DNA of 64,000 bases from Eledone cirrhosa. Its lineage: Eukaryota. The DNA lies in contig OZ024757.1 of NCBI GenBank assembly GCA_964016885.1, forward strand, positions 35,650,001 to 35,714,000, read 5' to 3'. Below, piece after piece: positions 8,833-56,700 of this stretch. Both the position numbers and the translations under genes were made by a program. Under the pieces are notes generated by a model that was not told where the DNA came from, searched no databases, and was given only the letters and a program-made list of their open reading frames with translations. Positions within the stretch are counted from its first letter, which is position 1; every line of letters begins with the position of its first letter.

Positions 8833-10579
<1,747 letters not shown>

Positions 10580-26430: not shown

Positions 26431-27002
26431 GAAACAAACTACCCGCATCAGTTATTATACTTTTATAACACCGCTATATTACCTACATGAAAGAGGTAAA
26501 TATTTATTTCTCTTGTCTTCTTAAATGTATAGAACATTTTTCTTATATATATTCTTAACATAGCTAGGACCGTTTATTATTTACTAGTCTCTACTCCTAG
26601 GACTTTGCTGGTCTCATGTCCCCTCCATCAACACACACTCGGTAGAAAGCTAGTCGTCAGAGGTAAAGTGGCCCTGATTACAGGTCTAGTATTGAAGCCT
26701 TTCGGCTTGAGCCTTGCTGATGCCGACAGAGTTCCTGTGGTAGTTTTGGTAGCGCAGGTGACATTTTATTGTGTTTAGGTACCGGCTAGTGCGGACACAG
26801 AGAGCACAACCAGGTGGTGAGCTGGCAACGACCAAGTGTAGAGGGCCAGCTTTGAAATTCGAGCGACGGAGTGAACTAGTAAAAGAGGCAGGGTAAGCAG
26901 CATTGGTTCTAACGGTGGGACTAGAACGGAGGTTGGGTGGTGCTGGGGGTGGGCTAACAGCTAACAGTTGTAGGAGTGGTGGGGCTTTGCTAGGATTAAT
27001 TT

Positions 27003-32500: not shown

Positions 32501-35500
32501 TGTTATGGACATCTCTGCCCCTGTGGCTAATAATTCTGAGAGAGATGAAACAAGTGAGGGATTAGAGAGACATAAAACAAGTGAGGGATTAGAGTGTTGA
32601 AACAAGAGAGAGAGAGAGCGAGATGAAATGAGACAGGGAGAGCGAGATGAAACGCGAGAGTGAGAGAAGCGAGATGAAACGAGAGAGTGAGAGCGAGATG
32701 AAACGAGAGAGAGAGAGAGCGAGATGAAACGAGACAGAGAGAGCGAGATGTAATGAGAGAGAGAGAGAGCGGGATGGAACGAGACAGAGAGGAAACGAGA
32801 GAGAGAGGAAACGAGAGAGAGGAAACGAGAGTAGAGAGCGAGATGAAACAGGAGAGAGAGAGCGAGATGAAACGAGAGGCAGAGAGAGATGAAACGAGGG
32901 AGAGGAAGAGAGAGATGGAACGAGAGAGAGGAAGACAGAGATGAAACGAGAGAGAGAGAGCGAGATGAAACGAGAGAGAGAGAGCGCGAGATGAAACGAG
33001 AGAGAGAGAGCGCGAGATGAAACGACAGAGAGAGAGACAGATGAAAGGAGGGAGATAGAGATGAAACGAGAGAGAGGAAGAGAGTGATGGAACGAGCGAG
33101 AGGAAGAGAGAGATGGAACGAGAGAGAGGAAGACAGAGATGAAACGAGAGAAAGCGAGATGAAACGAGAGAGCGAGATGAAACGGGAGAGAGAGCGAGAT
33201 GAAACGAGAGAGAGGGAAAGAGAGAGCGCGAGATGAAACTCTGTCATGTAATGTTATGGACATATCTGCCCTTGGGGCTAATAATTGTCATGTAATGTTA
33301 TGGACATCTCTGCCCCTGTGGCTAATAATTATGTCATGTAATGTGATGGACATCTCTGCCCCTGTGGCTAATAATTCTGTCATGTAATGTTATGGACATC
33401 TCTGCCCCTGTGGCTAATAATTCTGACATGTAATGTTATGGACATCTCTGCCCTGTGGCTAATAATTCTGACATGTAATGTTATGGACATCTCTGCCCCT
33501 GTGGCTAATAATTCTGAGAGAGATGAAACAAGTGAGAGATTAGAGAGAGATAAAACAAGTGAGGGATTAGAGTGTTGAAACAAGAGAGAGAAAGAGCGAA
33601 ATGAAATGAGACAGGGAGAGCGAGATGAAACGCGAGAGTGAGAGAAGCGAGATGAAACGAGAGAGTGAGAGCGAGATCAAACGAGAGAGAGAGAGAGCGA
33701 GATGAAACGAGACAGAGAGGAAACGAGAGAGAGGAAACGAGAGTAGAGAGCGAGATGAAACAGGAGAGAGAGAGCGAGATGAAACGAGAGGGAGAGAGAG
33801 ATGAAACGAGAGAGCGACAGAGAGATGAAAGGAGGGAGATAGAGATGAAACGAGAGAGAGGAAGAGAGAGATGGAACGAGAGAGAGGAAGAGTGAGATGG
33901 AACGAGAGAGAGGAAGACAGAGATGAAACGAGAGAGAGAGAGAGCGAGATGAAATAAGGGAGAGAGAGCGCAAGATGAAACGAGAGAGAGAGAGCGCGAG
34001 ATGAAACGACAGAGAGAGAGACAGATGAAAGGAGTGAGATAGAGATGAAACGAGAGAGAGGATGAGAGAGATGGAACGAGAGAGAGGAAGAGAGAGATGG
34101 AACGAGAGAGAGGAAGACAGAGATGAAACGAGAGAGAGAGAGAGCGAGAGGAAACGAGAGAGAGAGAACGCAAGATGAAACGAGAGAGAGAGAGCGCGAG
34201 ATGAAACTGTCATGTAATGTTATTGCCATATCTGCCCCTGTGGCTAATAATTGTCATGTAATGTTATGGTCATCTCTGCCCCTGTGGCTAATAATTCTGT
34301 CATGTAATGTTATGGACATCTCTGCCACTGTGGCTAATAATTCTGAGAGAGATGAAACAAGTTAGAGATTAGAGAGAGATAAAACAAGTGAGGGATTAGA
34401 GTGTTGAAACAAGAGAGAGAGAGGAAGAGAGAGAAAGAGCGAAATGAAATGAGACAGGGAGAGCGAGATGAAACGCGAGAGTGAGAGAAGCGAGATGAAA
34501 CGAGAGAGTGAGAGCGAGATCAAACGAGAGAGAGAGAGAGCGAGATGAAACGAGACAGAGAGGAAACGAGAGAGAGGAAACGAGAGTAGAGAGCGAGATG
34601 AAACAGGAGAGAGAGAGCGAGATGAAACGAGAGGGAGAGAGAGATGAAACGAGAGAGCGACAGAGAGATGAAAGGAGGGAGATAGAGATGAAACGAGAGA
34701 GAGGAAGAGAGAGATGGAACGAGAGAGAGGAAGAGTGAGATGGAACGAGAGAGAGGAAGACAGAGATGAAACGAGAGAGAGAGAGAGCGAGATGAAATAA
34801 GGGAGAGAGAGCGCAAGATGAAACGAGAGAGAGAGAGCGCGAGATGAAACGACAGAGAGAGAGACAGATGAAAGGAGTGAGATAGAGATGAAACGAGAGA
34901 GAGGAAGAGAGAGATGGAACGAGAGAGAGGAAGAGAGAGATGGAACGAAAGAGAGGAAGACAGAGATGAAACGAGAGAGAGAGAGAGCGAGAGGAAACGA
35001 GAGAGAGAGAGCGCAAGATGAAACGAGAGAGAGAGAGCGCGAGATGAAACTGTCATGTAATGTTATTGCCATATCTGCCCCTGTGGCTAATAATTGTCAT
35101 GTAATGTTATGGTCATCTCTGCCCCTGTGGCTAATAATTCTGTCATGTAATGTTATGGACATCTCTGCCCCTGTGGCTAATAATTCTGACATGTAATGTT
35201 ATGGACATCTCTGCCCCTGCGGCTAATAATTCTGACATGTAATGTTATGGTCATCTCTGCCCCTGTGGCTAATAATTCTGAGAGAGATGAAACAAGTGAG
35301 GGATTAGAGTGTTGAAACAAGAGAGAGAGAGAGCGAGATGAAATGAGAGAGTGAGAGCGAGATGAAACGAGAGAGTGAGAGCGAGATGAAACGAGAGAGA
35401 GAGAGCGAGATGAAATGAGAGAGAGAGAGCGAGATGAAATGAGACAGAGAGAGAACGAGATGAAACGAGAGAGTGAGAGCGAGATGAAACGAGAGAGTGA

Positions 35501-36536
35501 GAGCGAGATGAAACGAGAGAGAGAGAGCGAGATGAAATGAGAGAGAGAGAGCGAGATGAAATGAGAGAGAGAGAGCGAGATGAAACGAGACATAGAGAGA
35601 ACGAGATGAAACGAGAGAGTGAGAGCGAGATGAAACGAGAGAGAGAGAGCGCGAGATGAAACGGGAGGGAGAGAGAGATGAAACGAGAGAGAGAGGAAAC
35701 GAGAGTAGAGAGCGAGATGAAACAGGAGAGAGAGAGAGCGAGATGAAACAGGAGAGAGAGAGCGAGATGAAACGAGAGGGAGAGAGAGATGAAACGAGAG
35801 AGCGAGAGAGAGATGAAACGAGGGAGATAGAGATGAAACGAGAGAGAGGAAGAGAGAGATGGAACGAGAGAGAGGAAGACAGAGATGGAACGAGAGAGAG
35901 GAAGACAGAGATGAAACGAGAGAGAGAGAGAGCGAGATGAAACAGGAGAGAGAGAGCGAGATGAAACGAGAGGGAGAGAGAGATGAAACGAGAGAGCGAG
36001 AGAGAGATGAAACAAGGGAGATAGAGATGAAACGAGAGAGAGGAAGAGAGAGATGGAACGAGAGAGTGGAAGAGAGAGATGGAACGAGAGAGAGGAAGAC
36101 AGAGAAGAAACGAGAGAGAGAGAGCGCAAGATGAAATGAGAGAGAGAGAGCGCGAGATGAAACGACAGAGAGAGAGACAGATGAAAGGGGGGAGATAGAG
36201 ATGAAACGAGAGAGAGGAAGAGAGAGATGGAACGAGAGAGAGGAAGAGAGAGATGGAACGAGAGAGAGGAAGACAGAGATGAAACGAGAGAGAGAGCGAG
36301 ATGAAACGGGAGAGAGAGAGCGCAAGATGAAACGAGAGAGAGCGCGAGATGAAACTCTGTCATGTAATGTTATTGACATATCTGCCCCTGTGGCTAATAA
36401 TTGTCACGTAATGTTATGGTCATCGCTGCCCCTGTGGCTAATAATTCTGTCATGTAATGTTATGGACATCTCTGCCCTTGTGGCTAATAATTCTGACATG
36501 TAATGTTATGGACATCTCTGCCCCTGTGGCTAATAA
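29527..36536 (+). repeat. Compound satellite, GA orientation: 46-bp minisatellite blocks alternating with GAGATGAAAC(GA)n blocks
   Basis: 46-mer CATGTAATGTTATGGACATCTCTGCCCCTGTGGCTAATAATTCTGW (period 29540 to 29586). GA blocks start GAGAGAGATGAAACA.GTGAG.GATTAGAG and mostly end GCGAGATGAAACTCTGT. Confidence 0.97.
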
Positions 36537-36543
36537 ATCAGAA

Positions 36544-39500
36544 TTATTAGCCACAGGGGCAGAGATGTCCATAACATTACATGTCAGAATTATTAGCCAC
36601 AGGGGCAGAGATGTCCATAACATTACATGTCAGAATTGTTAGCCACAGGGGCAGAGATGTCCATAACATTACATGTCAGAATTATTAGCCACAGGGGCAG
36701 AGATGTCCATAACATTACATGTCAGAATTATTAGCCAGAGGGGCAGAGATGTCCATAACATTACATGACAGAATTATTAGCCACAGGGGCAGATATGTCC
36801 ATAACATTACATGACAGACTTTCATCTCGCGCTCTCTCTCTCTCTCTCGTTTCATCTCGCGCTCTTTCTCTTCCTCTCTCTCGTTTCATCTCGGTCTCTC
36901 TATCGTTTCATCTCGCGTTCACTCTCTTCCTCTCTCTCGTTTCATCTCGCTCTCTCTCTCTCTCGTTTCATCTCTGTCTTCCTCTCTCTCGTTCCATCTC
37001 TCTCTCCCTCTCTCTCGTTCCACCTCTATCTTCCTCTCTCTCGTTTCCTCTCTCTCGTATCCTCTCTCTCGTTTCCTCTCTCTCTCGTTTCCTCTCTCTC
37101 TCGTTTCCTCTAGCTCTCTCTCTCTCGTTTCATCTCGCTCTCTCTCTCTCATTTCATCTCGCTCTCTCTCTCTCGTTTCATCTTGCTCTCTCTGTCTCGT
37201 TTCATTTCGCTCTCTCTCTCTCTCATTTCATCTCGCTCTCTCTATCTCGTTTCATCCCGCTCTCTCTGTCTCGTTTCATCTCGCTCTCTCTCTCTCATTT
37301 CATCTCGCTCTCTCTCTCTCATTTCATCTCGCTCTCACTCTCTCATTTCATCTCGCTCTCTCTCTCTCGTTTGATCTCGCTCTCACTCTCTCTTCCTCCC
37401 TCTCTCTTGTTTCAACACTCTAATCCCTCACTTGTTTCATCTCTCTCAGATTTATTAGCCACAGGGGCAGAGATGTCCATAACATTACATGACAGAATTA
37501 TTAGCCACAGGGGCAGAGATGTCCATAACACTACATGACATAATTATTAGCCACAGGGGCAGAGATGTCCATAACATTACATGACAGAATTATTAGCCAC
37601 AGGGGCAGAGATGTACATAACATTACATGACAATTATTAGCCCCAAGGGCAGATATGTCCATAACATTACATGACAATTATTAGCCCCAAGGGCAGATAT
37701 GTCCATAACATTACATGACAGACTTTCATCTCGCGCTCTCTCTCTCTCGTTTCATCTCGCCCTCTCTCTCTTCCTCTCTCTCGTTTCATCTCGCACTCTC
37801 TCTCTCTCGTTTCATCTCGCGCTCTCTCTCTTCCTCTCTCTCGTTTCATCTCGCTCTCTCTCTCTCTCGTTTCATCTTTGTCTTCCTCTCTCTCGTTCCA
37901 TTTCTCTCTTCCTCTCTCTCTCGTTCCATCTCTCTCTCGTTTCATCTAGCTCTCACTCTCTCGTTTCATCTCGCTCTCTCGTTTCATCTCTATCTCCCTC
38001 GTTTCATCTGTCTCTCTCTCTGTCGTTTCATCTCCCTCTATCTCTCTCTCGCTCTCTCGTTTTATCTCTCCCTCCCTCTCGTTTCATCTCGCTCTCTCAC
38101 TCCTGTTTCATCTCGCTCTCTCTCTCCTGTTTCATCTCGCTCTCTACTCTCGTTCCATCTCTCTCTCGTTTCATCTAGCTCACACTCTCTCGTTTCATCT
38201 CGCTCTCTCTGTCTCGTTCCATCTCACTCTTTCTGTCTCGTTTCATCTCGCTCTCTCTCTCTCATTTCATCTCGCTCTCTCTCTCTCTCTCGTTTCATCA
38301 CGCGCTCTCTCTCTTCCTCTCTCTCTTTTCATCTCTCTCTCTCTCTCTCCTTTCATCTCTGTCTTTCTCTCTCTCGTTCCATCTCTCTCTTCCTCTCTCT
38401 CGTTCCATCTCTCTCTTCCTCTCTCTCGTTTCATCTCTCTCTCTCGTTTCATCTCTATCTCCCTCGTTTCAGCTGTCTCTCTCTCTGTCGTTTCATCTCC
38501 CTCTATCTCTCTATCGCTCTCTCGTTTCATCTCTCTCTCCCTCTCGTTTCATCTCGCTCTCTCTCTCCTGTTTCATCTCGCTCTCTCTCTCTCCTGTTTC
38601 ATCTCGCTCTCTACTCTCGTTTCCTCTCTCTCGTTTCCTCTCTCTCTCGTTTCCTCTCTCTCTCGTTTTATGTAGCTCTCACTCTCTCGTTTCATCTCGC
38701 TCTCTCTCTCTCATTTCATCTCGCTCTCTCTCTCTCGTTTCATCTCGCTCTCTCTATCTCGTTTCATCTCGCTCTCTCTGTCTCTCATTTCATCTCGCTC
38801 TCTCTGTCTCGTTTCATCCCGCTCTCTCTGTCTCGTTTCATCTCGCTCTCTCTCTCTCATTTCATCTCACTCTCTCTCTCTCATCTCGCTCTCTCTCTCT
38901 CGTTTTATCTCGCTCTCACTCTCTCATTTCATCTCGCTCTCTCTCTCTCGTTTGATCTCGCTCTCACTCTCTCTTCCTCTTTCTCTCTTGTTTCAACACT
39001 TTAATCCCTCACTTGTTTCATCTCTCTCTAATCCCTCACTTGTTTCATCTCTCTCAGAATTATTAGCCACAGGGGCAGAGATGTCCATAACGTTACATGT
39101 CAGAAATTATTAGCCACAGGGGCAGAGATGTCCATAACATTACATGTCAGAATTATTAGCCACAGGGGCAGAGATGTCCATAACATTACATGACAGATTT
39201 ATTAGCCACAGGGGCAGAGATGTCCATAACATTACATGACGAATTTATTAGCCACAGGGGCAGAGATGTCCATAATATTACATTACAGAATTGTTAGCCA
39301 CAGGGGCAGAGATGGCCATAACATTACATGACAGAATTATTAGCCACAGGGGCAGAGATGTCCATAACATTACATGACAATTATTAGCCCCTAGGGCAGA
39401 TATGTCCATAACATTACTTGACAGACTTTCATCTGGCGCTCTCTCGTTTCATCTCGCGCTCTCTCTCTTCCTCTCTCTCGTTTCATCTCACTCTCTCTCT

Positions 39501-42500
39501 CTCTCGTTTCATCTCGCACTCTCTCTCTTCCTCTCTCTCGTTTTATCTTGCTCTCTCTCTCTCTCGTTTCATCTCTGTCTTCCTCTCTCTCGTTCCATCT
39601 CTCTCTTCCTCTCTCTCGTTTAATCTCTCTCTCTCGTTTCATCTCTATCTCCCTCGTTTCATCTGTCTCTCTTTCTGTCGTTTCATCTCCCTCTATCTCT
39701 CTCTCGCTCTCTCGTTTCATCTCTCTCTCCCTCTCGTTTCATCTCGCTCTCTCTCTCCTGTTTCATCTCGCTCTCTCTCTCCTGTTTCATCTCGCTCTCT
39801 ACTCTCGTTTCCTCTCTCTCGTATCCTCTCTCTCGTTTCCTCTCTCTCTCGTTTCCTCTCTCTCTCGTTTCCTCTAGCTCTCACTCTCTCGTTTCATCTC
39901 GCTCTCTCTCTCTCATTTCATCTCGCTCTCTCTCTCTCGTTTCATCTCGCTCTCTCTGTCTCGTTTCATTTCGCTCTCTCTCTCTCTCATTTCATCTCGC
40001 TCTCTCTGTCTCGTTTCATCCCGCTCTCTCTGTCTCCTTTCATCTCGCTCTCTCTCTCGCATTTCATCTCGCTCTCTCTCTCTCATTTCATCTCGCTCTC
40101 TCTCTCTCGTTTCATCTCGCTCTCACTCTCTCATTTCATCTCGCTCTCTCTCTCGTTTGATCTCGCTCTCACTCTCTCTTCCTCTCTCTCTCTTGTTTCA
40201 ACACTCTAATCCCTCACTTGTTTCATCTCTCTCTTATCCCTCACTTGTTTCATCTCTCTCAGAATTATTAGCCACAGGGGCAGAGATGTCCATAACATTA
40301 CATGTCAGAATTATTAGCCACAGGGGCAGAGATGTCCATAACATTACATGACAGATTTATTAGCCACAGGGGCAGAGATGTCCATAACATTACATGACGA
40401 ATTTATTAGCCACAGGGGCAGAGATGTCCATAACATTACATGACAGAATTATTAGCCACAGGGGCAGAGATGTCCATAACATTACATGACATAATTATTA
40501 GCCACAGGGGCAGAGATGTCCATAACATTACATGACAGAATTATTAGCCACAGGGGCAGATATGTCCATAACATTACATGACAATTATTAGCCCCAAGGG
40601 CAGATATGTCCATAACATTACATGAGAGACTTACATCTCACGCTCTCTCTCTCTCGTTTCATCTCGCTCTCTCTCTCTCTCGTTTCAACTTTGTCTTCCT
40701 CTCTCTCGTTCCATCTCTCTCTTCCTCTCTCTCTCGTTCCATCTCTCTCTCGTTTCATCTAGCTCTCACTCTCTCGTTTCATCTCGCTCTCTCTGTCTCG
40801 TTCCATCTCGCTCTCTCTCTCTCGTTTCATCTCTATCTCCCTCGTTTCATCTGTCTCTCTCTCTGTCGTTTCATCTCCCTCTATCTCTCTCTCGCTCTCT
40901 CGTTTCATCTCTGCCTCCCTCTCGTTTCATCTCGCTCTCTCACTCCTGTTTCATCTCGCTCTCTCTCTCCTGTTTAATCTCGCTCTCTACTCTCGTTCCA
41001 TCTCTCTCTCGTTTCATCTAGCTCTCACTCTCTCGTTTCATCTCGCTCTCTCTGTCTCTCATTTCATCTCGATCTCTCTGTCTCGTTTCATCCCGCTCTC
41101 TCTCTCTCGTTTCATCTCACTCTCACTCCATCTCGCTCTCTCTCTCTCGTTTCATCTCGCGCTCTCTCTCTTCCTCTCTCTCGTTTCATCTCGCTCTCTC
41201 TCTCTCTCTCGTTTCATCACGCGTTCTCTCTCTTCCTCTCTCTCGTTTCATCTCTCTCTCTCTCTCTCTCTCGTTTCATCTCTGTCTTCCTCTCTCTCGA
41301 TCCATCTCTCTCTTCCTGTCTCTCGTTCCATCTCTCTCTTCCTCTCTCTCGTTTCATCTCTATCTCCCTCGTTTCATCTGTCTCTCTCTCTGTCGTTTCA
41401 TCTCCCTCTATCTCTCTCTCGCTCTCTCGTTTCATCTCTCTCTCCCTCTCGTTTCATCTCGCTCTCTCTCTCCTGTTTCATCTCGCTCTCTACTCTCGTT
41501 TCCTCTCTCTCGTTTCCTCTCTCTCATTTCCTCTCTCTCTCGTTTCCTCTCTCTCTCGTTTCATCTGGCTCTCACTCTCTCGTTTCATCTCGCTCTCACT
41601 CTCTCATTTCATCTCGCTCTCTCTCTCTCATTTCATCTCGCTCTCTCTCTCTCGTTTCATCTCGCTCTCACTCTCTCATTTCATCTCGCTCTCTCTCTCT
41701 CGTTTGATCTCGCTCTCACTCTCTCTTCCTCTCTCTCTCTTGTTTCAACACTCTAATCCCTCACTTGTTTCATCTCTCTCAGAATTATTAGCCACAGGGG
41801 CAGAGATGTCCATAACATTACATGTCAGAATTATTAGCCACAGGGGCAGAGATGTCCATAACATTACATGACAGATTTATTAGCCACAGGGGCAGAGATG
41901 TCCATAACATTACATGACGAATTTATTAGCCACAGGGGCAGAGATGTCCATAATATTACATTACAGAATTATTAGCCACAGGGGCAGAGATGTCCATAAC
42001 ATTACATGACAATTATTAGCCCCTAGGGCAGATATGTCCATAACATTACTTGACAGACTTTCATCTGGCGCTCTTTCGTTTCATCTCGCGCTCTCTCTCT
42101 TCCTCTCTCTCGTTTCATCTCGCACTCTCTCTCTTCCTCTCTCTCGTTTTATCTTGCTCTCTCTCTCTCTCGTTTCATCTCTGTCTTCCTCTCTCTCGTT
42201 CCATCTCTCTCTTCCTCTCTCTCGTTTCATCTCTCTCTCTCGTTTCATCTCTATCTCCCTCGTTTCATCTGTCTCTCTCTCTGTCGTTTCATCTACCTCT
42301 ATCTCTCTCTCGCTCTCTCGTTTCATCTCTCTCTCCCTCTCGTTTCATCTCGCTCTCTCTCTCCTGTTTCATCTCGCTCTCTCTCTCCTGTTTCATCTCA
42401 CTCTCTACTCTCGTTTCCTCTCTCTCGTATCCTCTCTCTCGTTTCCTCTCTCTCTCGTTTCCTCTCTCTCTCGTTTCCTCTAGCTCTCACTCTCTCGTTT

Positions 42501-45500
42501 CATCTCGCTCTCTCTCTCTCATTTCATCTCGCTCTCTCTCTCTCGTTTCATCTCGCTCTCTCTGTCTCGTTTCATTTCGCTCTCTCTCTCTCTCATTTCA
42601 TCTCGCTCTCTCTGTCTCGTTTCATCCCGCTCTCTCTGTCTCCTTTCATCTCGCTCTCTCTCTCTCATTTCATCTCGCTCTCTCTCTCTCATTTCATCTC
42701 GCTCTCTCTCTCTCGTTTCATCTCGCTCTCACTCTCTCATTTCATCTCGCTCTCTCTCTCGTTTGATCTCGCTCTCACTCTCTCTTCCTCTCTCTCTCTT
42801 GTTTCAACACTCTAATCCCTCACTTGTTTCATCTCTCTCTTATCCCTCACTTGTTTCATCTCTCTCAGAATTATTAGCCACAGGGGCAGAGATGTCCATA
42901 ACATTACATGTCAGAATTATTAGCCACAGGGGCAGAGATGTCCATAACATTACATGACAGATTTATTAGCCACAGGGGCAGAGATGTCCATAACATTACA
43001 TGACGAATTTATTAGCCACAGGGGCAGAGATGTCCATAACATTACATGACAGAATTATTAGCCACAGGGGCAGAGATGTCCATAACATTACATGACATAA
43101 TTATTAGCCACAGGGGCAGAGATGTCCATAACATTACATGACAGAATTATTAGCCACAGGGGCAGATATGTCCATAACATTACATGACAATTATTAGCCC
43201 CAAGGGCAGATATGTCCATAACATTACATGACAGACTTACATCTCACGCTCTCTCTCTCTCGTTTCATCTCGCTCTCTCTCTCTCTCTCTCGTTTCATCA
43301 CGCGTTCTCTCTCTTCCTCTCTCTCGTTTCATCTCTCTCTCTCTCTCTTCCTCTCTCTCGTTTCATCTCTCTCTCTCTCTCTCTCTCGTTTCATCTCTGT
43401 CTTCCTCTCTCTCGTTCCATCTCTCTCTTCCTGTCTCTCGTTCCATCTCTCTCTTCCTCTCTCTCGTTTCATCTCTATCTCCCTCGTTTCATCTGTCTCT
43501 CTCTCTGTCGTTTCATCTCCCTCTATCTCTCTCTCGCTCTCTCGTTTCATCTCTCTCTCCCTCTCGTTTCATCTGGCTCTCTCTCTCCTGTTTCATCTCG
43601 CTCTCTACTCTCGTTTCCTCTCTCTCGTTTCCTCTCTCTCGTTTCCTCTCTCTCTCGTTTCCTCTCTCTCTCGTTTCATCTGGCTCTCACTCTCTCGTTT
43701 CATCTCGCTCTCACTCTCTCATTTCATCTCGCTCTCTCTCTCTCATTTCATCTCGCTCTCTCTCTCTCGTTTCATCTCGCTCTCACTCTCTCATTTCATC
43801 TCGCTCTCTCTCTCTCGTTTGATCTCGCTCTCACTCTCTCTTCCTCTCTCTCTCTTGTTTCAACACTCTAATCCCTCACTTGTTTCATCTCTCTCAGATT
43901 TATTAGCCACAGGGGCAGAGATGTCCATAACATTACATGACGAATTTATTAGCCACAGGGGCAGAGATGTCCATAACATTACATGACAGAATTATTAGCC
44001 ACAGGGGCAGAGATGTCCATAACATTACATGACATAATTATTAGCCACAGGGGCAGAGATGTCCATAACATTACATGACAGAATTATTAGCCACAGGGGC
44101 AGAGATGTACATAACATTACATGACAGTTATTAGCCCCAAGGGCAGATATGTCCATAATATTACATGACAATTATTAGCCCCAAGGGCAGATATGTCCAT
44201 AACATTACATGACAGACTTTCATCTCGCGCTCTCTCTCTCTCTCGTTTCATCTCGCCCTCTCTCTCTTCCTCTCTCTCGTTTCATCTCGCTCTCTCTCTC
44301 GTTTCATCTCGCGCTCTCTCTTTTCCTCTCTCTCGTTTCATCTCGCTCTCTCTCTCTCTCGTTTCATCTTTGTCTTCCTCTCTCTCGTTCCATTTCTCTC
44401 TTCCTCTCTCTCTCGTTCCATCTCTCTCTCGTTTCATCTCGCTCTCTCGTTTCATCTCTATCTCCCTCGTTTCATCTGTCTCTCTCTCTGTCATTTCATC
44501 TCCCTCTATCTCTCTCTCGCTCTCTCGTTTCATCTCTCCCTCCCTCTCGTTTCATCTCGCTCTCTCACTCCTGTTTCATCTCGCTCTCTCTCTCCTGTTT
44601 CATCTCGCTCTCTACTCTCGTTCCATCTCTCTCTCGTTTCATCTAGCTCACACTCTCTCGTTTCATCTCGCTCTCTCTGTCTCGTTCCATCTCGCTCTCA
44701 CTCTCTCGTTTCATCTCGCTCTCTCTGTCTCTCATTTCATCTCGATCTCTCTGTCTCGTTATATCCCGCTCTTTCTGTCTCTTTTCATCTCGCTCTCTCT
44801 CTCTTATTTCATCTCGCTCTCTCTCGTTTCATCTCACTCTCACTCTCTCATTTCATCTCGCGCTCTCTCTCTCTCGTTTCATCTCGCGCTCTCTCGTTTC
44901 ATCTCGCTCTCGCTCTCTCTCTCTCTCTTGTTTCATCTCGCGCTCTCTCTCTTCTTCTCTCTCGTTTCATCTCGCTCTCTCTCTCTCTCGTTTCAACTTT
45001 GTCTTCCTCTCTCTCGTTCCATCTCTCTCTTCCTCTCTCTCTCGTTCCATCTCTCTCTCGTTTCATCTAGCTCTCACTCTCTCGTTTCATCTCGCTCTCT
45101 CTGTCTCGTTCCATCTCGCTCTCTCTCTCTCGTTTCATCTCTATCTCCCTCGTTTCATCTGTCTCTCTCTCTGTCATTTCATCTCCCTCTATCTCTCTCT
45201 CACTCTCCCGTTTCATCTCTACCTCCCTCTCGTTTCATCTCGCTCTCTCACTCCTGTTTCATCTCGCTCTCTCTCTCCTGTTTAATCTCGCTCTCTACTC
45301 TCATTCCATCTCTCTCTCGTTTCATCTAGCTCTCACTCTCTCGTTTCATCTCGCTCTCTCTGTCTCTCATTTCATCTCGATCTCTCTGTCTCGTTTCATC
45401 CCGCTCTCTCTCTCTCGTTTCATCTCACTCTCACTCTCTCATTTCATCTCGCTCTCTCTCTCTCATTTCATCTCGCGCTCTCTCTCTTCCTCTCTCTCTT

Positions 45501-45874
45501 TTCATCTCGCTCTCTCTCTCTCTCTCGTTTCATCACGCGTTCTCTCTCTTCCTCTCTCTCGTTTCATCTCTCTCTCTCGTTTCATCTCTATCTCCCTCGT
45601 TTCATCTGTCTCTCTCTCTGTCGTTTCATCTCCCTCTATCTCTCTCTCGCTCTCTCGTTTCATCTCTCTCTCCCTCTCGTTTCAACTCGCTCTCTCTCTC
45701 CTGTTTCATCTCGCTCTCTCTCTCTCCTGTTTCATCTCGCTCTCTACTCTCGTTTCCTCTCTCTCGTTTCCTCTCTCTCTCGTTTCCTCTCTCTCTCGTT
45801 TCATTTAGCTCTCACTCTCTCGTTTCATCTCGCTCTCTCTCTCTCATTTCATCTCGCTCTCTCTCTCTCGTTTC
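36544..45874 (-). repeat. Compound satellite, inverted (CT) orientation
   Basis: Reverse complement of the 46-mer (TTATTAGCCACAGGGGCAGAGATGTCCATAACATTACATG) and GTTTCATCTC(TC)n blocks. Confidence 0.97.
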
Positions 45875-46722
45875 CATAGAAAAGGTAAAGAAAAGAAGAA
45901 TGCTCTATGTATTGTACAGAGCTATTTAATTACATAATAAACAACAGAATATAATTATTCCATGCAAATAGACTTAGAATGGAAAACATTCAGACAGAGA
46001 AGAATGGATAATGAGCGTCGTAAGAGAAATTGGCCAACAATTAATATTAATGGAAATGTAGAAGAATTTCATATTAGTGATATGAATGTTTCGTGTGATC
46101 ACTGTGGAGCTTTGAAATTTAGAAATGAAAATTGTAACTGTTGTAATAAAGGAAAGGTTGTGTTGCCACCATTGCAAATATACCCTGAGAGACTGAGAAA
46201 TCTCTTTGAAAGAGGCCAGGAAGCAGTTGATTTCACAGAAACATCTGCAATTAAAACTACATTTATTTCACTTCATTTGGTGTTACCACCCGGCAGAGGC
46301 CCGTATAGCTTTCATATTCAGAGTCAAACATATCACTACACCCCCATCTCTGTAACCTGCAGAAAATACACCACAATATGGCCAGTTATATATTATTGAT
46401 GGGAACGAAGGTATGTAGCACAGATTGGAAGTACAACCAAATAATTGTTTCTGGCACAAGGCCAGCAATTACTGGTACTTTATTCTATCGACCTCATAAG
46501 GATGAAAACAAAGTCAACCTTGGAGGGATTTGAACCCAGAACGTAAATGGCCATAACCCTATGCTGTAAAGCATGGTGTCTGGCGCTCTACCGATACTGC
46601 CAATCCACTGCCCTAGTACCAACAAATAATGACTGCTCACGACAAAAAATGGCTATGATAAGAGAAGTGTTGCATGAATGTAATCCATATGTCGAAGTGT
46701 ACAATACAATGCATGGCATCAC
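45871..46722 (+). mobile_element. Helitron RepHel 5' fragment, copy 3 (inverted relative to copy 2)
   Basis: ORF 45962-46399 is almost identical to 28921-29358(-). It continues to MAMIREVLHECNPYV and is truncated at a (TA)n run. Confidence 0.93.
46446..46614 (-). mobile_element. tRNA-derived SINE nested in Helitron copy 3
   Basis: Same insertion site as in copies 1 and 2. TSD AGTACAACCAAATAAT (46430-46445) and AGTACCAACAAATAAT (46615-46630), 14/16 identical. Confidence 0.9.
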
Positions 46723-47283
46723 AAATGAATATATATATATATATATATATATATACTACTAAAGTGTATGTAAAATTTTAAAATAAATACTTAAATTCAA
46801 TTTGTATAATTACACATACAATATGTTTTGTTGTAAAACCCTAAATAATGATTTAAGAAATGATGTCAATCTCTTTGTACAGAGAAAAACAATTTATATA
46901 TATGCATTGTGTGCGCGTGTATACTCCATTTAAGACAGTGAAAAACCTAGTACCTCCTTCAAAGAATGCCAAATAGTTTATGCCTAAGGTGTAACACTAA
47001 TTAAGTTACCGGTGTAGATATTTCAGTTGAACCCTGCTTCAAACATGCATATTACTATTATATATTTTCAAACACACTTACATACGTTATATTTATACAC
47101 ATAGAAATAATAAGTTAAAACTAAAGTATAATGATATAACAACAGTATATAATAGTTTTCTTCACTTTATTGAGATGCAATCGTTTTAAAGAAAAAACAT
47201 GACAGTATAAGAAATATTTAATATGAGAACATAATATTTCAGGTAGGATGGTGGTTTCTCTATGATGGTGGTTTCTCTTTGAA

Positions 47284-47457
47284 CTAATAATTGTTTCTAT
47301 TTTAGGCACAAGGTCAGTAATTAACCAGTACATTACTGGTACTTTATTTTATCGACCCCGTAAGGATGAAAGGCAAAGTTGACCTCGGATCGTAAAGGGA
47401 CGTAACTATGCTGGAAAGCATGGCGTCAGACCCTCTACCGATACTGCCAATTCACCA
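47284..47457 (-). mobile_element. Independent copy of the same tRNA-derived SINE family
   Basis: GGCACAAGG..CTGGTACTTTATTTTATCGACCCCGTAAGGATGAAAGGCAAAGTTGACCTCGG..CTCTACCGATACTGCCAATTCACC. Confidence 0.85.
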
Positions 47458-47649
47458 TACAGTATAATTATACAAATATGCATATAGATAGCAATATATA
47501 TACACTAATATGTATGTACATATTTACACATATGTACATATATATAGGGAGAGAGGGAGACACATGTATGTATATATATATACACATGCGTGTATGCATG
47601 TGTGTTTATGTACATTCTTCGGTATATATATCGGTATACACATTGGAGA

Positions 47650-47882
47650 CACAGAGAGAGAGAGTTGAAACGAGAGGTGAGAGAGAGAGTTGAAACGAGG
47701 AGAGAGTTGAAACGAGGAGAGAGTTTAAATAAGAGGGTGAGGGGAGAGAGGAAGAGAGAGAGAGGGGATGAGAGAGAGGAAGAGAGAGAGAGAGGGGAAG
47801 AGAGAGAGAGGGAGAGAAGGGGATGAAACAAGAGGGTGAGGGATGAAACAACAGAGAGAGGGGAGAGAAAGAGAGAGGGGAT

Positions 47883-47930
<48 letters not shown>

Positions 47931-50900
47931 ATTGAAACAAGAGAGAGATGAAACAAGTGAGGGATTAGAGAGAGATGAAACAAGTGAGGGATTGGAGTGT
48001 TGAAACAAGAGAGAGAGAGCGAGATGAAATGAGAGAAAGAGAGTGAGATGAAATGAGAGAGTGAGAGCGAGATGAAACGAGACAGGGAGAGCGAGATGAA
48101 ATGAGAGAGTGAGAGCGAGATGAAACGAGAGAGTGAGAGCGAGATGAAACGAGAGAGAGAGAGAGCGAGATGACACGAGACAGAGAGAGCGAGATGAAAT
48201 GAGAGAGAGAGAGAATGAGATGAAATGAGAGAGAGAGAGAGCGAGATGAAATGAGACATAGAGAGATGAAACGAGAGAGAGATGAAACGAGAAAGAGAGG
48301 AAACGAGAGAGTGGAAACAAGAGTAGAGAGCGAGATGAAACAGGAGTGAGAGAGCGAGATGAAACAGGAGAGAGAGAGCGAGATGAAACGAGAGGGAGAG
48401 AAAGATGAAACGAGAGAGCGAGAGAGAGATAGAGGGAAATGAAACGACAGAGAGAGAGACAGATGAAACGAGGGATATAGAGATGAAACGAGAGAGAGAG
48501 ATGAAACGAGAGAGAGGAAGAGAGAGATAGAACGAGAGAGAGGAAGAGAGAGATGAAACGAGAGAGAGGAAGACAGAGGTGAAACGAGAGAGAGAGCGAG
48601 ATGAAACGAGAGAGAGGAAGAGAGAGAGCGCGAGATGAAACTCTGTCATGGACATATCTGCCCCTGGGGCTAATAATTGTCATGTAATGTTATGGACATC
48701 TCTGCCCCTGTGGCTAATAATTCTGTCATGTAATGTTATGGACAACTCTGCTCCTGTGGCTAATAATTCTGTCATGTAATGTTATGGACATCTCTGCCCC
48801 TGTGGCTAATAATTCTGACATGTAATGTTATGGAATCTCTGCCCCTGTGGCTAATAAATCTGTCATGTAATGTTACGGACATCTCTGCCCCTGTGGCTAA
48901 TAATTCTGACATGTAATGTTATGGACATCTCTGCCCCTGTGGCTAATAATTCTGAGAGAGATGAAACAAGTGAGGGATTAGAGAGAGATGAAACAAGTGA
49001 GGGATTAGAGTGTTGAAACAAGAGAGAGAGAGGAAGAGAGAGTGAGAGCGAAATCAAACGAGAGAGAGCGAGATGAAATGAGAGAGTGAGAGCGAGATGA
49101 AACGAGAGAGAGAGAGAGAGCGAGATGAAATGAGAGAGAGAGAGCGAGATGAAATGAGAGAGAGAGAGCGAGATGAAACGAGACAGAATGAGCGGGATGA
49201 AACGAGACAGAGAGAGCGAGAGCGAGATGAAACGAGACAGAGAGAGTGAGATGAAACGAGAGAGAGAGAGCGAGATGAAATGAGAGAGAGAGAGCGAGAT
49301 GAAATGAGAGAGAGAGAGCGAGATGAAACGAGAGAGTGAGAGCGAGATGGAACGAGACAGAGAGAGCGAGATGAAACGAGAGTGGGAGAGCTAGATGAAA
49401 CGAGAGAGAGAGGAAACGAGAGAGAGAGAGGAAACGAGAGAGACGAAACGAGAGAGAGGAAACGAGAGTAGAGAGCGAGATGAAACAGGAGAGAGAGAGC
49501 GAGATGAAACAGGAGAGAGAGAGCGAGATGAAACAGGAGAGAGATAGCGAGATGAAACGAGAGGGAGAGAGAGATGAAACGAGAGAGCGAGAGAGAGATA
49601 GAGGGAGATGAAACGACAGACAGAGAGACAGATGAAACGAGGGAGATAGAGATGAAACGAGAGAGAGGAAGAGAGAGATGGAACGAGAGAGAGGAAGAGA
49701 GAGATGGAACGAGAGAGAGAGAGATCGAGATGAAACGAGAGAGAGGAAGAGAGAGAGCGCAAGATGAAACGAGAGAGAGAGAGAGAGAGCGAGATGAAAC
49801 GAGAGAGAGGAAGAGAGAGAGCGCGAGATGAAACGAGAGAGAGGAAGAGAGAGAGCGCGAGATGAAACGAGAGAGTGAGAGCGAGATGAAATGAGGGAGA
49901 GAGAGAACGAGATGAAATGAGAGAGAGAGAGAGCGAGATGAAATGAGACATAGAGAGATGAAACGAGAGAGAGATGAAACGAGAAAGAGAGGAAACGAGA
50001 GAGTGGAAACAAGAGTAGAGAGCGAGATGAAACAGGAGTGAGAGAGCGAGATGAAACAGGAGAGAGAGAGCGAGATGAAACGAGAGGGAGCGAGAGATGA
50101 AACGAGAGAGCGAGAGAGAGATAGAGGGAAATGAAACGACAGAGAGAGAGACAGATGAAACGAGGGATATAGAGATGAAACGAGAGAGAGATATGAAACG
50201 AGAGAGAGGAAGAGAGAGATAGAACGAGAGAGAGGAAGAGAGAGATGAAACGAGAGAGAGGAAGACAGAGGTGAAACGAGAGAGAGAGAGAGCGAGATGA
50301 AACGAGAGAGAGAGCGAGATGAAACGAGAGAGAGGAAGAGAGAGAGCGCGAGATGAAACTCTGTCATGGACATCTCTGCCCCTGTGGCTAATAATTCTGT
50401 CATGTAATGTTATGGACAACTCTGCCCCTGTGGCTAATAATTCTGTCATGTAATGTTATGGACATCTCTGCCCCTGTGGCTAATAATTCTGACATGTAAT
50501 GTTATGTAATCTCTGCCCCTGTGGCTAATAAATCTGTCATGTAATGTTTCGGACATCTCTGCCCCTGTGGCTAATAAATCTGTCATGTAATGTTATGGAC
50601 ATCTCTGTCCCTGTGGCTAATAATTCTGACATGTAATGTTATGGACATCTCTGCCCCTGTGGCTAATAATTCTGAGAGAGATGAAACAAGTGAGGGATTA
50701 GAGAGAGATGAAACAAGTGAGGGATTAGAGTGTTGAAACAAGAGAGAGAGAGGAAGAGTGAGTGAGAGCGAAATCAAACGAGAGAGAGCGAGATGAAATG
50801 AGAGAGTGAGAGCGAGATGAAACGAGAGAGAGAGAGCGAGATGAAATGAGAGAGAGAGAGCGAGATGAAACGAGACAGAGAGAGCGGGATGAAACGAGAC

Positions 50901-53766
50901 AGAGAGAGCGAGAGCGAGATGAAACGAGACAGAGAGAGCGAGATGAAACGAGAGAGAGAGAGCGAGATGAAATGAGAGAGAGAGAGCGAGATGAAATGAG
51001 AGAGAGAAAGCGAGATGAAACGAGAGAGTGAGAGCGAGATGGAACGAGACAGAGAGAGCGAGATGAAACGAGAGTGGGAGAGCTAGATGAAACGAGAGAG
51101 AGAGGAAACGAGAGAGAGAGGAAACGTGAGAGACGAAACGAGAGAGAGGAAACGAGAGTAGAGAGCGAGATGAAACAGGAGAGAGAGAGCGGGATGAAAC
51201 AGGAGAGAGAGAGCGAGATGAAACGAGAGGGAGAGAGAGATGAAACGAGAGAGCGAGAGAGAGATAGAGGGAGATGAAACGACAGAGAGAGAGACAGATG
51301 AAACAAGGGAGATAGAGATGAAACGAGAGAGAGAGATGAAACGAGAGAGAGGAAGAGAGAGATGGAACGAGAGAGAGGAAGAGAGAGATGGAACGAGAGA
51401 GAGGAAGACAGAGATGAAACGAGAGAGAGAGAGAGCAAGATGAAACGAGAGAGAGAGATGAAACGAGAGAGAGGAAGAGAGAGATGGAACGAGAGAGAGG
51501 AAGACAGAGATGAAACGAGAGAGAGAGAGATTGAGATGAAACGAGAGAGAGGAAGAGAGAGAGCGCAAGATGAAACGAGAGAGAGAGAGAGCGAGATGAA
51601 ACGAGAGAGAGGAAGAGAGAGAGCGCGAGATGAAACGAGAGAGAGGAAGAGAGAGAGCGCAAGATGAAACGAGAGAGAGAGAGAGCGAGATGAAACGAGA
51701 GAGGGGAAGAGAGAGAGCGCGAGATGAAACGAGAGAGAGGAAGAGAGAGAGCGCGAGATGAAACGAGAGAGAGAGAGCGAGATGAAATGAGAGAGTGAGA
51801 GTGAGATGAAACGAGAGAGAGAGAGAGAGCGAGATGAAATGAGAGAGTGAGAGCGAGATGAAATGAGAGAGAGAGAGCGAGATGAAACGAGACAGAGAGA
51901 GCGGGATGAAACGAGACAGAGAGATCGAGATGAAATGAGAGAGAGAGAGCAAGACGAAATGAGAGAGAGAGAGCGAGATGAAACGAGAGAGTGAGAGCGA
52001 GATGGAACGAGTCAGAGAGAGCGAGATGAAACGAGAGAGTGAGAGCTAGATGAAACGAGAGAGAGAGGAAACGAGAGAGAGAGGAAACGAGAGAGAGGAA
52101 ACGAGAGAGAGGAAACGAGAGTAGAGAGCAAGATGAAACAGGAGAGAGAGAGAGCGAGATGAAACCGGAGAGAGAGAGCGAGATGAAACGAGAGGGAGGG
52201 AGAGATGAAACGAGAGAGCGAGAGAGAGATAGAGGGAGATGAAACGAGAGAGTGATAGCTAGATGAAACGAGAGTGAGAGGAATAGAGAGATGGAACGAG
52301 AGAGAGGAAGACAGATATGAAACGAGAGAGAGAGAGAGCGAGATGAAACGAGAGAGAGGAAGAGAGAGAGCGCGAGATGAAATGAGAGAGAGAGAGAGCG
52401 AGATGAAACGAGAGAGAGGAAGAGAGAGAGCGCGAGATGAAAAGAGAGAGAGAGAGAGCGAGATGAAAAGAGAGAGAGGAAGAGAGAGAGCGCGAGATGA
52501 AACGAGAGAGAGAGAGCGAGATGAAATGAGAGAGTGAGGGTGAGATGAAACGAGAGAGAGAGAGATAGCGAGATGAAATGAGAGAGAGAGAGCGAGATGA
52601 AATGAGAGAGAGAGAGAGCGAGATGAAACGAGACAGAGAAAGCGGGATGAAACGAGACAGAGAGATCGAGAGGAAATGAGAGACAGAGAGAGCGAGATGA
52701 AACGAGAGAGTGAGAGCGAGATGGAACGAGACAGAGAGAGCAAGATGAAACGAGAGAGTGAGGAAACGAGAGAGAGAAGAAACGAGAGAGAGGAAACGAG
52801 AGAGAGGAAACGAGAGTAGAGAGCGAGATGAAACAGGAGAGAGAGAGAGCGAGATAAAACAGGAGAGAGAGAGCGAGATGAAACGAGAGGGAGGGAGAGA
52901 TGAAACGAGAGAGCGAGAGAGAGATAGAGGGAGATGAAACGACAGAGAGAGAGACAGATGAAACGAGGGAGATAGATATGAAACGAGAGAGCGAGATGAA
53001 ACGAGAGAGTGAGAGCGAGATGGAACGAGACAGAGAGAGGGAGATGAAACGAGACAGAGAGAGCGAGATGTAATGAGAGAGAGAGTGGGATGGAACGAGA
53101 CAGAGAGGAAACGAGAAAGAGAGGAAACGAGAGAGAGAGGAAACGAGAGAGAGGAAACGAGAGTAGAGAGCGAGATGAAACAGGAGAGAGAGAGCGAGAT
53201 GAAACAGGAGAGAGAGAGCGAGATGAAACGAGAGGGAGGGAGAGATGAAACGAGAGAGGGAGAGAGAGATAGAGGGAGATGAAACGACAGAGAGAGAGAC
53301 AGATGAAACGAGGGAGATAGAGATGAAACGAGAGAGGAAGAGAGAGATGGAACGAGAGAGAGGAAGAGAGAGATGAAACGAGAGAGAGGAAGACAGAGAT
53401 GAATAGAGAGAGAGAGAGAGAGCGAGATGAAACGAGAGAGAGGAAGAGAGAGAGCGCGAGATGAAACGAGAGAGAGAGAGCGCGAGATGAAACTCTGTCA
53501 TGTAATGTTATGGACATATCTGCCCTTGGGGCTAATAATTGTCATGTAATGTTATGGACGTCTCTGCCCCTGTGGCTAATAATTCTGTCATGTAATGTTA
53601 TGGACATCTCTGCCCCTATGGCTAATAATTATGTCATGTAATGTTATGGACATCTCCGCCCCTGTGGCTAATAATTCTGACATGTAATGTTATGGACATC
53701 TCTGCCCCTCTGGCTAATAATTCTGACATGTAATGTTATGGACATCTCTGCCCCTGTGGCTAATAA
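47650..53766 (+). repeat. Compound satellite, GA orientation (second palindrome, left arm)
   Basis: Same 46-mer and GA blocks. It begins with a degenerate GA-rich edge and a pure (GA)n run at ~47888-47926. Confidence 0.97.
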
Positions 53767-53773
53767 ATCAGAA

Positions 53774-56700
53774 TTATTAGCCACAGGGGCAGAGATGTCC
53801 ATAACATTACATGTCAGAATTATTAGCCACAGGGGCAGAGATGTCCATAACATTACATGTCAGAATTATTAGCCACAGGGACAGAGATGTCCATAACATT
53901 ACATGTCAGAATTATTAGCCAGAGGGGCAGAGATGTCCATAACATTACATGTCAGAATTATTAGCCACAGGGGCAGAGATGTCCATAACATTACATGACA
54001 GATTTATTAGCCACAGGGGCAGAGATGTCCATAACACTACATGTCAGAATTATTAGCCACAGGGGCAGAGATGTCCATAACATTACATTACATAATTATT
54101 AGCCACAGGGGCAGAGATGTCCATAACATTACATGACAGAATTATTAGCCACAGGGGCAGAGATGTCCATAACATTACATGACAATTATTAGCCCCAAGG
54201 GCAGATATGTCCATAACATTACTTGACAGACTTTCATCTCGCGCCCTCTCTCTCGTTTCATCTCGCGCTCTCTCTCTTCCTCGCTCTCGTTTCATCTCGC
54301 TCTCTCTCTCTCGTTTCATCTCGCGTTAACTCTCTTCCTCTCTCTCGTTTCATCTCGCTCTCTCTCTCTCGTTTCATCTCTGTCTTCCTCTCTCTCGTTC
54401 CATCTCTCTCTTCCTCTCTCTCGTTCCATCTCTCTCTTCCTCTCTCTCGTTTCATCTCTCTCTCTCGTTTCATCTCTATCTCCCTCGTTTCATCTGTCTC
54501 TCTCTCTGTCGTTTCATCTCCCTCTAACTCTCTCTCGCTCTCTCGTTTCATCTCTCTCTCCCTCTCGTTTCATCTCGCTCTCTCTCTCCTGTTTCATCTC
54601 GCTCTCTCTCTCCTGTTTCATCTCGCTTTCTCTCTCCTGTTTCATCTCGCTCTCTACTCTCGTTTCCTCTCTCTCATATCCTCTCTCTCGTTTCCTCTCT
54701 CTCTCGTTTCCTCTCTCTCTCGTTTCCTCTAGCTCTCACTCTCTCGTTTCATCTCGCTCTCTCTCTCTCATTTCATCTCGCTCTCTCTCTCTCTCGTTTC
54801 ATCTCGCTCTCTCTGTCTCGTTTCATTTCGCTCTCTCTCTCTCTCATTTCATCTCGCTATCTCTATCTCGTTTCATCCCGCTCTCTCTGTCTCGTTTCAT
54901 CTCGCTCTCTCTCTCTCATTTCATCTCGCTCTCTCTCTCTCATTTCATCTCGCTCTCTCTCTCTCTCTCGTTTCATCTCGCTCTCACTCTCTCATTTCAT
55001 CTCGCTCTCTCTCTCTCGTTTGATCTCGCTCTCACTCTATCTTCCTCTCTCTCTCTTGTTTCAACACTCTAATCCCTCACTTGTTTCATCTCTCTCAGAT
55101 TTATTAGCCACAGGGGCAGAGATGTCCATAACATTACATGACGAATTTATTAGCCACAGGGGCAGAGATGTCCATAACATTACATGACAGAATTATTAGC
55201 CACAGGGGCAGAGATGTCCATAACATTACATGACATAATTATTAGCCACAGGGGCAGAGATGTCCATAACATTACATGACAGAATTATTAGCCACAGGGT
55301 CAGATATGTCCATAACATTACATGACAATTATTAGCCCCAAGGGCAGATATGTCCATAACATTACATGACAGACTTTAATCTCGCGCTCTCTCACTCTCG
55401 TTTCATCTCGCCCTCTCTCTCTTCCTCTCTCTCGTTTCATCTCGATCTCTCTCTCTCTCGTTTCATCTCGCGCTCTCTCTCTTCCTCTCTCTCTTCCTCT
55501 CTCTCTTCCTCTCTCTCGTTTCATATCGCTCTCTCTCTCTCTCGTTTCATCTTTGTCTTCCTCTCTCTCGTTCCATCTCTCTCTCTTCCTCTCTCTCTCT
55601 TTCCATCTCTCTCTCGTTTCATCTAGCTCTCACTCTCTCGTTTCATCTCGCTCTCTCTGTCTCGTTCCATCTCGCTCTCACTCTCTCGTTTCATCTCGCT
55701 CTCTCGTTTCATCTCTATCTCCCTCGTTTCATCTGTCTCTCTCTCTGTCGTTTCATCTCCCTCTATCTCTCTCTCGCTCTCGCGTTTCATCTCTCCCTCC
55801 CTCTCGTTTCATCTAGCTCACACTCTCTCGTTTCATCTCGCTCTCTCTGTTTCGTTCCATCTCGCTCTCACTCTCTCGTTTCATCTCGCTCTCTCTGTCT
55901 CTCATTTCATCTCGATCTCTCTGTCTCGTTTCATCCCGCTCTCTCTGTCTCGTTTCATCTCGCTCTCTCTCTCTCTCATTTCATCTCGCTCTCTCTCTCA
56001 TTTCATCTCGCTCTCTCTCTCTCTCTCTCGTTTCATCTCACTCTCACTCTCTCATTTCATCTCGCTCTCTCTCTCTCGTTTCATCACGCGCTCTCTCTCT
56101 TCCTCTCTCTCGTTCCATCTCTCTCTTCCTCTCTCTCGTTCCATCTCTCTCTTCCTCTCTCTCGTTTCATCTCTCTCTCTCGTTTCATCTCTATCTCCCT
56201 CGTTTCATCTGTCTCTCTCTCTGTCGTTTCATCTCCCTCTATCTCTCTCTCGCTCTCTCGTTTCATCTCTCTCTCCCTCTCGTTTCATCTCGCTCTCTCT
56301 CTCCTGTTTCATCTCGCACTCTCTCTCTCTTGTTTCATCTCGCTCTCTACTCTCGTTTCCTCACTCTCGTTTCATGTAGCTCTCACTCTCTCGTTTCATC
56401 TCGCTCTCTCTCTCTCATTTCATCTCGCTCTCTCTCTCTCGTTTCATCTCGCTCTCTCTGTCTCGTTTCATCTCGCTCTCTCTGTCTCTCATTTCATCTC
56501 GCTCTCTCTGTCTCGTTTCATCCCACTCTCTCTGTCTCGTTTCATCTCGCTCTCTCTCTCTCATTTCATCTCGCTCTCCCTCTCTCATTTCATCTCGCTC
56601 TCTCTCTCTCGTTTCATCTCGTTCTCACTCTCTCATTTCATCTCGCTCTCTCTCTCTCTCATTTCATCTCGCTCTCTCTCTCTCGTTTGAACTCGCTCTC

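Follow-up and report, generated by a model that had tools for sequence, protein, structure and literature searches.

Satellite arrays built of long inverted subarrays, termed macro-dyads, are described in Tribolium (TfSat01/03, TmSat1/2; PMC12581902, PMC13081366). According to the available parts of these two papers, the subarrays are kilobases long, have arms of unequal length and alternate with intercalary segments; there are few conserved inversion types, each joining two monomers truncated at different points without foreign DNA, and identical junctions occur on non-homologous chromosomes. The excerpted text of PMC12581902 reports inversion types that are identical across chromosomes and cites low-frequency direction changes in mouse satellites, and that of PMC13081366 (2026) restricts the documented satellite macro-dyads to Tribolium and interprets the conservation of their inversion sites as a possible sign of function. 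No macro-dyad report outside Tribolium was found in the open-access literature. PMC13427858 and PMC13277930 name macro-dyads solely in their reference lists, and the accessible portion of a 325-genome centromere atlas (10.64898/2026.09.17.752431) has 0 occurrences of 'palindrom' and describes satellites as tending to one strand.

The window analysed here (64,000 nucleotides, C18:35,650,001-35,714,000 of a 2,996-Mb genome, in which C18, C20 and C25 are chromosomes and C644 is an unplaced contig) displays a known macro-dyad-like architecture in a new, unrelated 3-Gb genome. It resembles the Tribolium arrays in each of the respects given above, its identical junctions being found on C18, C20 and C25. 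Unlike in the published excerpts on Tribolium, where copies run to thousands on nearly all chromosomes, there are tens of copies on three chromosomes; 46-mers, a 27-mer and GA tracts make up the satellite, which is itself embedded in a macrosatellite composed of Helitron remnants, and the junction loop measures 7 nt, as compared to 9-27 bp in T. freemani. The satellite does not dominate on most chromosomes, as evident from the first 100 listed of its 5,456 exact core matches, none of which is on C2-C6 or C8-C17; the locus is therefore classed as working like the Tribolium macro-dyads and not as a member of them.

The compound satellite begins at 29.5 kb, occupies the rest of the window and consists of blocks of two to ten 46-mers, a 27-mer and GA-rich tracts, with a module size of about 1-2 kb. 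It runs forward from 29.5 to 36.5 kb, in reverse to 45.9 kb and, after a 1.8-kb non-satellite spacer, forward from 47.7 to 53.8 kb and in reverse to the window end. The features are listed below, J1 and J2 denoting the two copies of a 25-nt junction (J).

26431..29449, minus strand: dead Helitron remnant of the surrounding macrosatellite, with a Pif1 2B fragment at 27003-27404, frameshifts, stops and an internal deletion
29535..36536, plus strand: left arm of J1, compound satellite, 8 blocks
36519..36536, plus strand: 18-nt motif of the 46-mer, equal to a LINE 3' terminus, ending at the junction
36528..36552, plus strand: J1, head-to-head inversion junction with a left arm of type B and a right arm of type R
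36538..45874, minus strand: right arm of J1, inverted satellite, 7 blocks
45871..46721, plus strand: presumed Helitron N-terminal remnant with inserted SINE, an inverted copy of 28599-29449 (98.1%), within the tail-to-tail spacer
46756..47650, plus strand: non-satellite spacer before the next satellite arm, 99.3-99.6% identity among C18 tandem units
47653..53766, plus strand: left arm of J2, 3 blocks
53705..53927, no strand assigned: apex variant CCCCTCTGGC of C18, carried by each arm of J2 and by the right arm only of J1 (36734)
53758..53782, plus strand: J2, junction identical to J1, with a left arm of type A and a right arm of type R
53768..64000, minus strand: right arm of J2, continuing beyond the window, where an inverted spacer/Helitron piece and, at C18:35728917, a J on the minus strand follow

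The piece at 45871-46721 is taken to be Helitron plus SINE on the basis of its motifs; it has no Pfam match. SINE motifs and zinc-finger clusters occur nearby and are suggestive of an octopod. Pfam matched one of seven window frames (Pif1_2B), and an Rfam scan of the window gave 0 matches at gathering scores, so there is no sign of an RNA gene array in it.

The original prediction held that the satellite flips strand at two identical 25-nt junctions, and exact matching within the window bears this out: J starts at 36528 and at 53758, both on the plus strand, with a spacing of 17,230 bp. J is a real, well-defined structure and forms the apex of a satellite cassette laid out as a mirror image. 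This apex is rich in A+T, and its predicted fold is a 57-bp stem with a 7-nt loop formed by the spacer (−68.5 kcal/mol). The spacer, described as asymmetric, has two pairable bases on each side of the central base plus one mismatch. The arms had been regarded as long inverted stretches of 46-mers; they are instead composed of alternating 46-mer blocks, 27-mer and GA tracts, and pairing at the apex is perfect over 58 bp in J1 and 56 bp in J2. Within 5-kb arms, the longest exact inverted match is 119 bp for J1 and 128 bp for J2.

All four diagnostic markers said to follow both junctions in the same order are present (36734/53918, 38994/56729, 39087/56822 and 39310/57044), and the CCCCTCTGGC variant does lie on both arms of J2, at 53705 and 53918. 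The markers are not unique to these places, as three of the four recur at 57875-58190 and two of those again at 62485-62754 of the window. J1 and J2 have a common right arm type and different left arm types: the GA-tract 31-mer Jaccard index is 0.11 between the left arms of J1 and J2, as against 0.44 between the left arm of J1 and that of the J at C18:35771616. This dissimilarity of the left arms identifies the 17.2-kb stretch as one unit within a larger array, as opposed to a single duplicated palindrome. A nested fold-back centred on J2 was also considered and rejected, because the left arm of the J on the minus strand at C18:35728917 is of type A, whereas that of J1 is of type B; this J is therefore an inverted sister unit and not the mirror of J1.

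Genome-wide, J is present in 66 exact copies (35 on the plus and 31 on the minus strand), far beyond chance, and in one point variant, making 67 in the 3.0-Gb genome, while a backwards control of the 25-mer gave 0 matches. The original observation is correct but understated, since 16 copies are on C18, 13 on C20, 36 on C25 (35 exact) and 2 on the unplaced C644, although copy number and order may be off as there are assembly gaps within or beside the C18 arrays. The copies are mostly 17-60 kb apart in same-strand tandem runs, and the strand changes in 5 of 62 pairs of neighbours, about 31 being expected if strands were random. When the centre was left free and only the 13-nt arms were kept fixed, the search returned 60 sites; 50 of these were listed, comprising 48 exact J, one J with one substitution (C25:27169843) and, on C2, one different joint. 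The 10 unlisted sites are presumably the remaining 10 J copies, as the numbers agree; 8 of the C20 copies carry an arm variant and hence fall beyond the search pattern.

The array context was mapped in 1.58 Mb plus 0.11 Mb of the genome, covering a minority of the C25 arrays. In these stretches the macrosatellite around the cassette consists of Helitron remnants together with 40-, 55- and 61-mer minisatellites. The order on C20 and C25 is remnant, forward arm, J, reverse arm and spacer, followed by 13-25 kb or more of macrosatellite; C18 has a shorter unit of arm, J, arm, inverted remnant and spacer, with a period of 17-29 kb. Arms of about 2-17 kb surround most J copies in the mapped stretches and are shorter at a few array edges. 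All four combinations of two left and two right outer border types are found, as is expected if recombination between arms inverts segments between cassettes. J is missing from related arrays at C1:212.6 Mb and C18:25.0-25.1 Mb.

The copy number of J is low enough for every junction to be typed, and all 67 sites were typed for flanking variants and marker side. The strings of monomer variants beside J are common within each of C18, C20 and C25 and different between them. With J read on the plus strand, 61 of the 65 chromosomal copies have the right-hand GA-tract marker to the right; it is point-mutated in two and unscorable in two, where the arm is cut short, and lies to the left in none. The spacer is flipped relative to the arms in 0 of the 65 chromosomal copies and in both copies on C644, one flip being clear and the other judged from the right side only. 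A single orientation with shared flanking variants had been put forward as the sign of plain duplication, and the outcome favours duplication. The same-side arms of sister copies reach a 31-mer Jaccard index of 0.82 and share exact direct matches of 204-589 bp in 11 of 12 comparisons, the left arms of J1 and J2 sharing 100 bp. The two arms of one J, by comparison, have an index of 0.09-0.22 and a longest exact inverted match of 96-137 bp (nine junctions). The survival of such a palindrome, presented earlier as a puzzle in view of the usual instability of palindromes, is less puzzling than stated because the arms are imperfect and match exactly only for about 100-140 bp at a stretch.

The apex itself has one variant in 67 × 7 nt (469), against 27 in 65 × 90 nt (5,850) of the adjacent monomers, a count in which copies with damaged arms could be missed; there is therefore no excess conservation of the apex. 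The CCCCTCTGGC variant is found at 8 sites to the left and 9 to the right of J on C18, at one distant site on C18 and at one on C20, so that 17 of the 18 C18 matches are at most 600 bp from J, and it is absent to the left of J in the two type-B C18 copies. Its presence on both arms speaks against purely passive descent and suggests that the variant was copied once through the apex in that C18 lineage. Exchange across the apex does happen, as evident from CCCCTCTGGC on both C18 arms and from the flip in both C644 copies. J looks inherited and not remade. Identical inversion sites on several chromosomes can thus arise by descent alone and without excess conservation, which provides a null model for the claim made for the beetles.

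The proposal that the inversion is site-specific is not supported, given further inversion points in the satellite, namely T1, T2, H4 and the spacer cassette; at least five inversion joints other than J exist, several of them where the monomer has short inverted repeats. J accounts for 27 of the 30 head-to-head switches of less than 3 kb in 1.50 Mb, and the tail-to-tail switches of less than 3 kb comprise the spacer cassette (7), T1 (3) and T2 (3, one a variant). T1 has 18 and T2 has 4 copies genome-wide, the spacer cassette was seen 7 times, and H4, a further head-to-head joint at C18:35315868, has a single match, counted only because it is inside an array, as its backwards control also gave one. 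Searches for fold-backs within the GA tract and for a tail-to-tail arrangement on the GCCACAGGGGCAG arm gave 0 matches each. T1, T2 and the spacer cassette, like J, were copied identically; the monomer has thus been inverted at several points, each joint then being copied.

T2 and H4 are placed exactly at native interrupted inverted repeats of the monomer, of 4 bp and 3 bp respectively, which is the junction type of the ODIRA model as given in the available part of PMC4689423. J differs from that type in having only 2 nt of homology, in joining two different monomers and in its long and diverged arms. The 2-nt microhomology is weak, the monomer having 23-26 inverted repeats of at least 2 bp, and the site of J is therefore not predictive. 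J can be composed from the common AATAAATC monomer variant (328 of 2,650 monomers) and a normal monomer in inverted orientation, the two overlapping by TC; because the left side of J matches this variant, no foreign bases are needed. Long inverted arms of tandem repeats are also reported for foldback transposons (Tetris; PMC4079207), and identical junctions in tandem arrays for tandem TE junctions (McGurk and Barbash; PMC5932611). Unlike foldback transposons, the cassettes have at least four different outer arm borders, at different monomer positions and with no common end, and no isolated element was observed whose two arms both terminate at the J sequence.

J most probably goes back to a single old inversion by template switch, multiplied afterwards with the macrosatellite by ordinary repeat turnover. 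The original prediction of one fold-back that was then duplicated is supported in essence, and what it missed is the scale of 67 copies. The replication template would have switched between two oppositely oriented monomers at a TC-T-GA micro-inverted repeat at the monomer boundary. Units of 17-60 kb may have been amplified through unequal exchange or the reintegration of circles, with a putative spread to three chromosomes and subsequent homogenisation within each. Occasional recombination between arms would invert the segment between cassettes, and exchange of sequence across the apex would be rare, with perhaps two events. The structure may persist since divergence and differences in block number would split the palindrome into short perfect stretches.

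That J is an artefact of assembly or of chimeric reads is extremely unlikely. The Logan contigs of X1, X4 (with another organism label) and X5 contain the monomer, none of them (0 of 3) crosses the apex, and the gaps in or beside the C18 arrays could be read in the same way; however, Logan contigs lose rare variants, and copy- and chromosome-specific variants beside 67 junctions, together with unequal arms, are unlike a fold-back chimera. Reads of X13, a RAD run of another study with the same species label, were aligned to the 84-nt apex: 474 of 1,132 end at AATT within J, taken to be the restriction cut, 44 of 1,132 are counted at apex base 36539, far below the depth on either side, and 17 reach 36545 and then depart from the sequence. 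By our reading of the tables, the reads at 36539 cross the apex, which is indirect support from one run; no RNA with the sequence is listed. The original prediction also offered J as a site-specific nick or turnaround point for rolling-hairpin replication by the neighbouring Helitron Rep. The dominance of one junction and the two flipped copies on C644 agree with this, and an asymmetric apex within an inverted repeat resembles parvovirus termini. Parvovirus rolling-hairpin resolution yields flip and flop equally, whereas 0 of the 65 chromosomal copies are flipped; J is moreover internal to chromosomes, other inversion joints exist, and the Rep is dead in all copies examined, which makes the proposal scarcely credible. 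The neighbouring Rep/helicase is frameshifted, stop-filled, SINE-interrupted and internally deleted, only the Pif1 2B fragment scoring, and the 150 scored out of 1,586 candidates for the N-terminal Helitron piece all have the same 142-152-aa frame. In 1.58 Mb there is no intact HUH Rep/helicase, only broken fragments, the longest Helitron-like frame being 324 aa. The same limit of 324 aa weighs against the cassette as cargo of a non-autonomous Helitron, amplified by rolling circle into head-to-tail arrays, although Helitron remnants form the basis of the macro-unit, tandem copies of which occur on several chromosomes, and tandem Helitron arrays have reportedly been published (PMC11934779). Unit length and content vary, with nested sub-duplications, and in window positions 1-30000 no 3' end of hairpin plus CTRR was found at a unit border, one weak match (8324, minus strand) being present; cargo amplification is very unlikely.

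Maintenance of the dyads by selection, as cruciform or loop structural elements in centromeric or heterochromatic domains, is compatible with an old inversion multiplied by repeat turnover, and is unlikely though less so than the other alternatives. It accords with the presence of one apex per macro-unit in every J array examined, with the A+T-rich apex and its predicted 57-bp stem and 7-nt loop, and with the structural role proposed for Tribolium in the excerpted text of PMC13081366; the dominance of J fits a founder effect, but selection would explain it too. Against it, J is on only three chromosomes, the related arrays on C1 and at C18:25.0-25.1 Mb are without it, and its apex is no more conserved than the flanks. 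It is improbable that J was made by LINE machinery, two LINE-tail ends having been joined 3'-to-3' in reverse transcription or second-strand synthesis. Over 18 nt (19 with a common variant) the end of the 46-mer is identical to the end of a LINE before its tail; this LINE family carries (ATCT)n tails and has 5,982 copies of its terminal 24-mer. In J, the left arm ends directly after AATAAA, and at C2:350083089 a LINE end folds back on itself at the 18-nt motif, with a 4-nt spacer that is 3 nt different from J. This C2 site is a LINE 3' end with RVT_1 and zf-RVT, which we take to be L1/Tx1-like, but it is the only LINE-type site among the 50 listed of 60, and the LINE end is also the boundary of the monomer and of the block, so that its coincidence with J is partly built in. 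Retroposition of the satellite was rejected, as no tailed dispersed copies were seen among the first 100 listed of 5,456 matches (C1-C17), one dispersed piece without a tail lying on C7; this makes LINE-made junctions less likely. Equally doubtful is the wider idea that a LINE-tail satellite forms LINE-made 3'-to-3' junctions, extruded as A+T-rich cruciforms every 17-60 kb and kept as a structural mark of specialised chromatin; were it true, macro-dyad architecture would have arisen independently of the beetles and be a general design of centromeric or heterochromatic DNA. Literature searches gave nothing specific on a LINE-tail-derived satellite in this group. Whatever the origin of J, chance identity of the motif with a family terminus has a probability of about 1e-5 by rough estimate, which suggests that the 46-mer monomer likely captured a LINE 3' tail, a concrete candidate origin for the monomer.

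The left half of the window, together with J1 (the copy at window 36528 of the 25-nt head-to-head inversion junction J of the 46-mer satellite), is found again 96-99.8% identical roughly 85-86 kb further downstream. Chromosome C18 thus has a higher-order repeat of 86 kb here, seen by comparing window 5359-29449 with C18:35.74-35.77 Mb. Immediately past the array end, C18:35.82-35.84 Mb displays putative C2H2 zinc-finger open frames of 384-612 aa, named by motif. Outside the 46-mer arrays, the window carries the following repeats:

8925-10453, diverged palindrome (85-92%) of the macrosatellite, centred on a TA-rich tract
13376-16667, 55-mer minisatellite, first array, very homogeneous (98% matches)
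21142-22881, diverged palindrome (85-92%) of the macrosatellite, centred on a TA-rich tract
23053-23980, diverged palindrome (85-92%) of the macrosatellite, centred on a TA-rich tract
25197-26430, 55-mer minisatellite, second array, very homogeneous

The three macrosatellite palindromes are older. The copy number of the 55-mer varies widely from one macro-unit to another.

The arrays on chromosome C25 form two oppositely oriented blocks, 26.5-27.96 Mb and 28.6-29.1 Mb, which are separated by ∼0.6 Mb, the latter stopping ∼0.3 Mb short of the contig end. The only junctions flipped relative to their own arms are C644:4334 and C644:17407, on an unplaced contig which also exhibits greater divergence and additional inversion joints.

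At C7:42172767-42172890, a SINE-like element is interrupted mid-length by three tailless monomers of the 46-mer, which were probably inserted by templated repair of a break. At C2:350083087-350083124, where several LINE copies are stacked, a LINE 3′ end adjoining a (GATA)n tract folds back on itself with a 4-nt spacer, at the motif that J has too.
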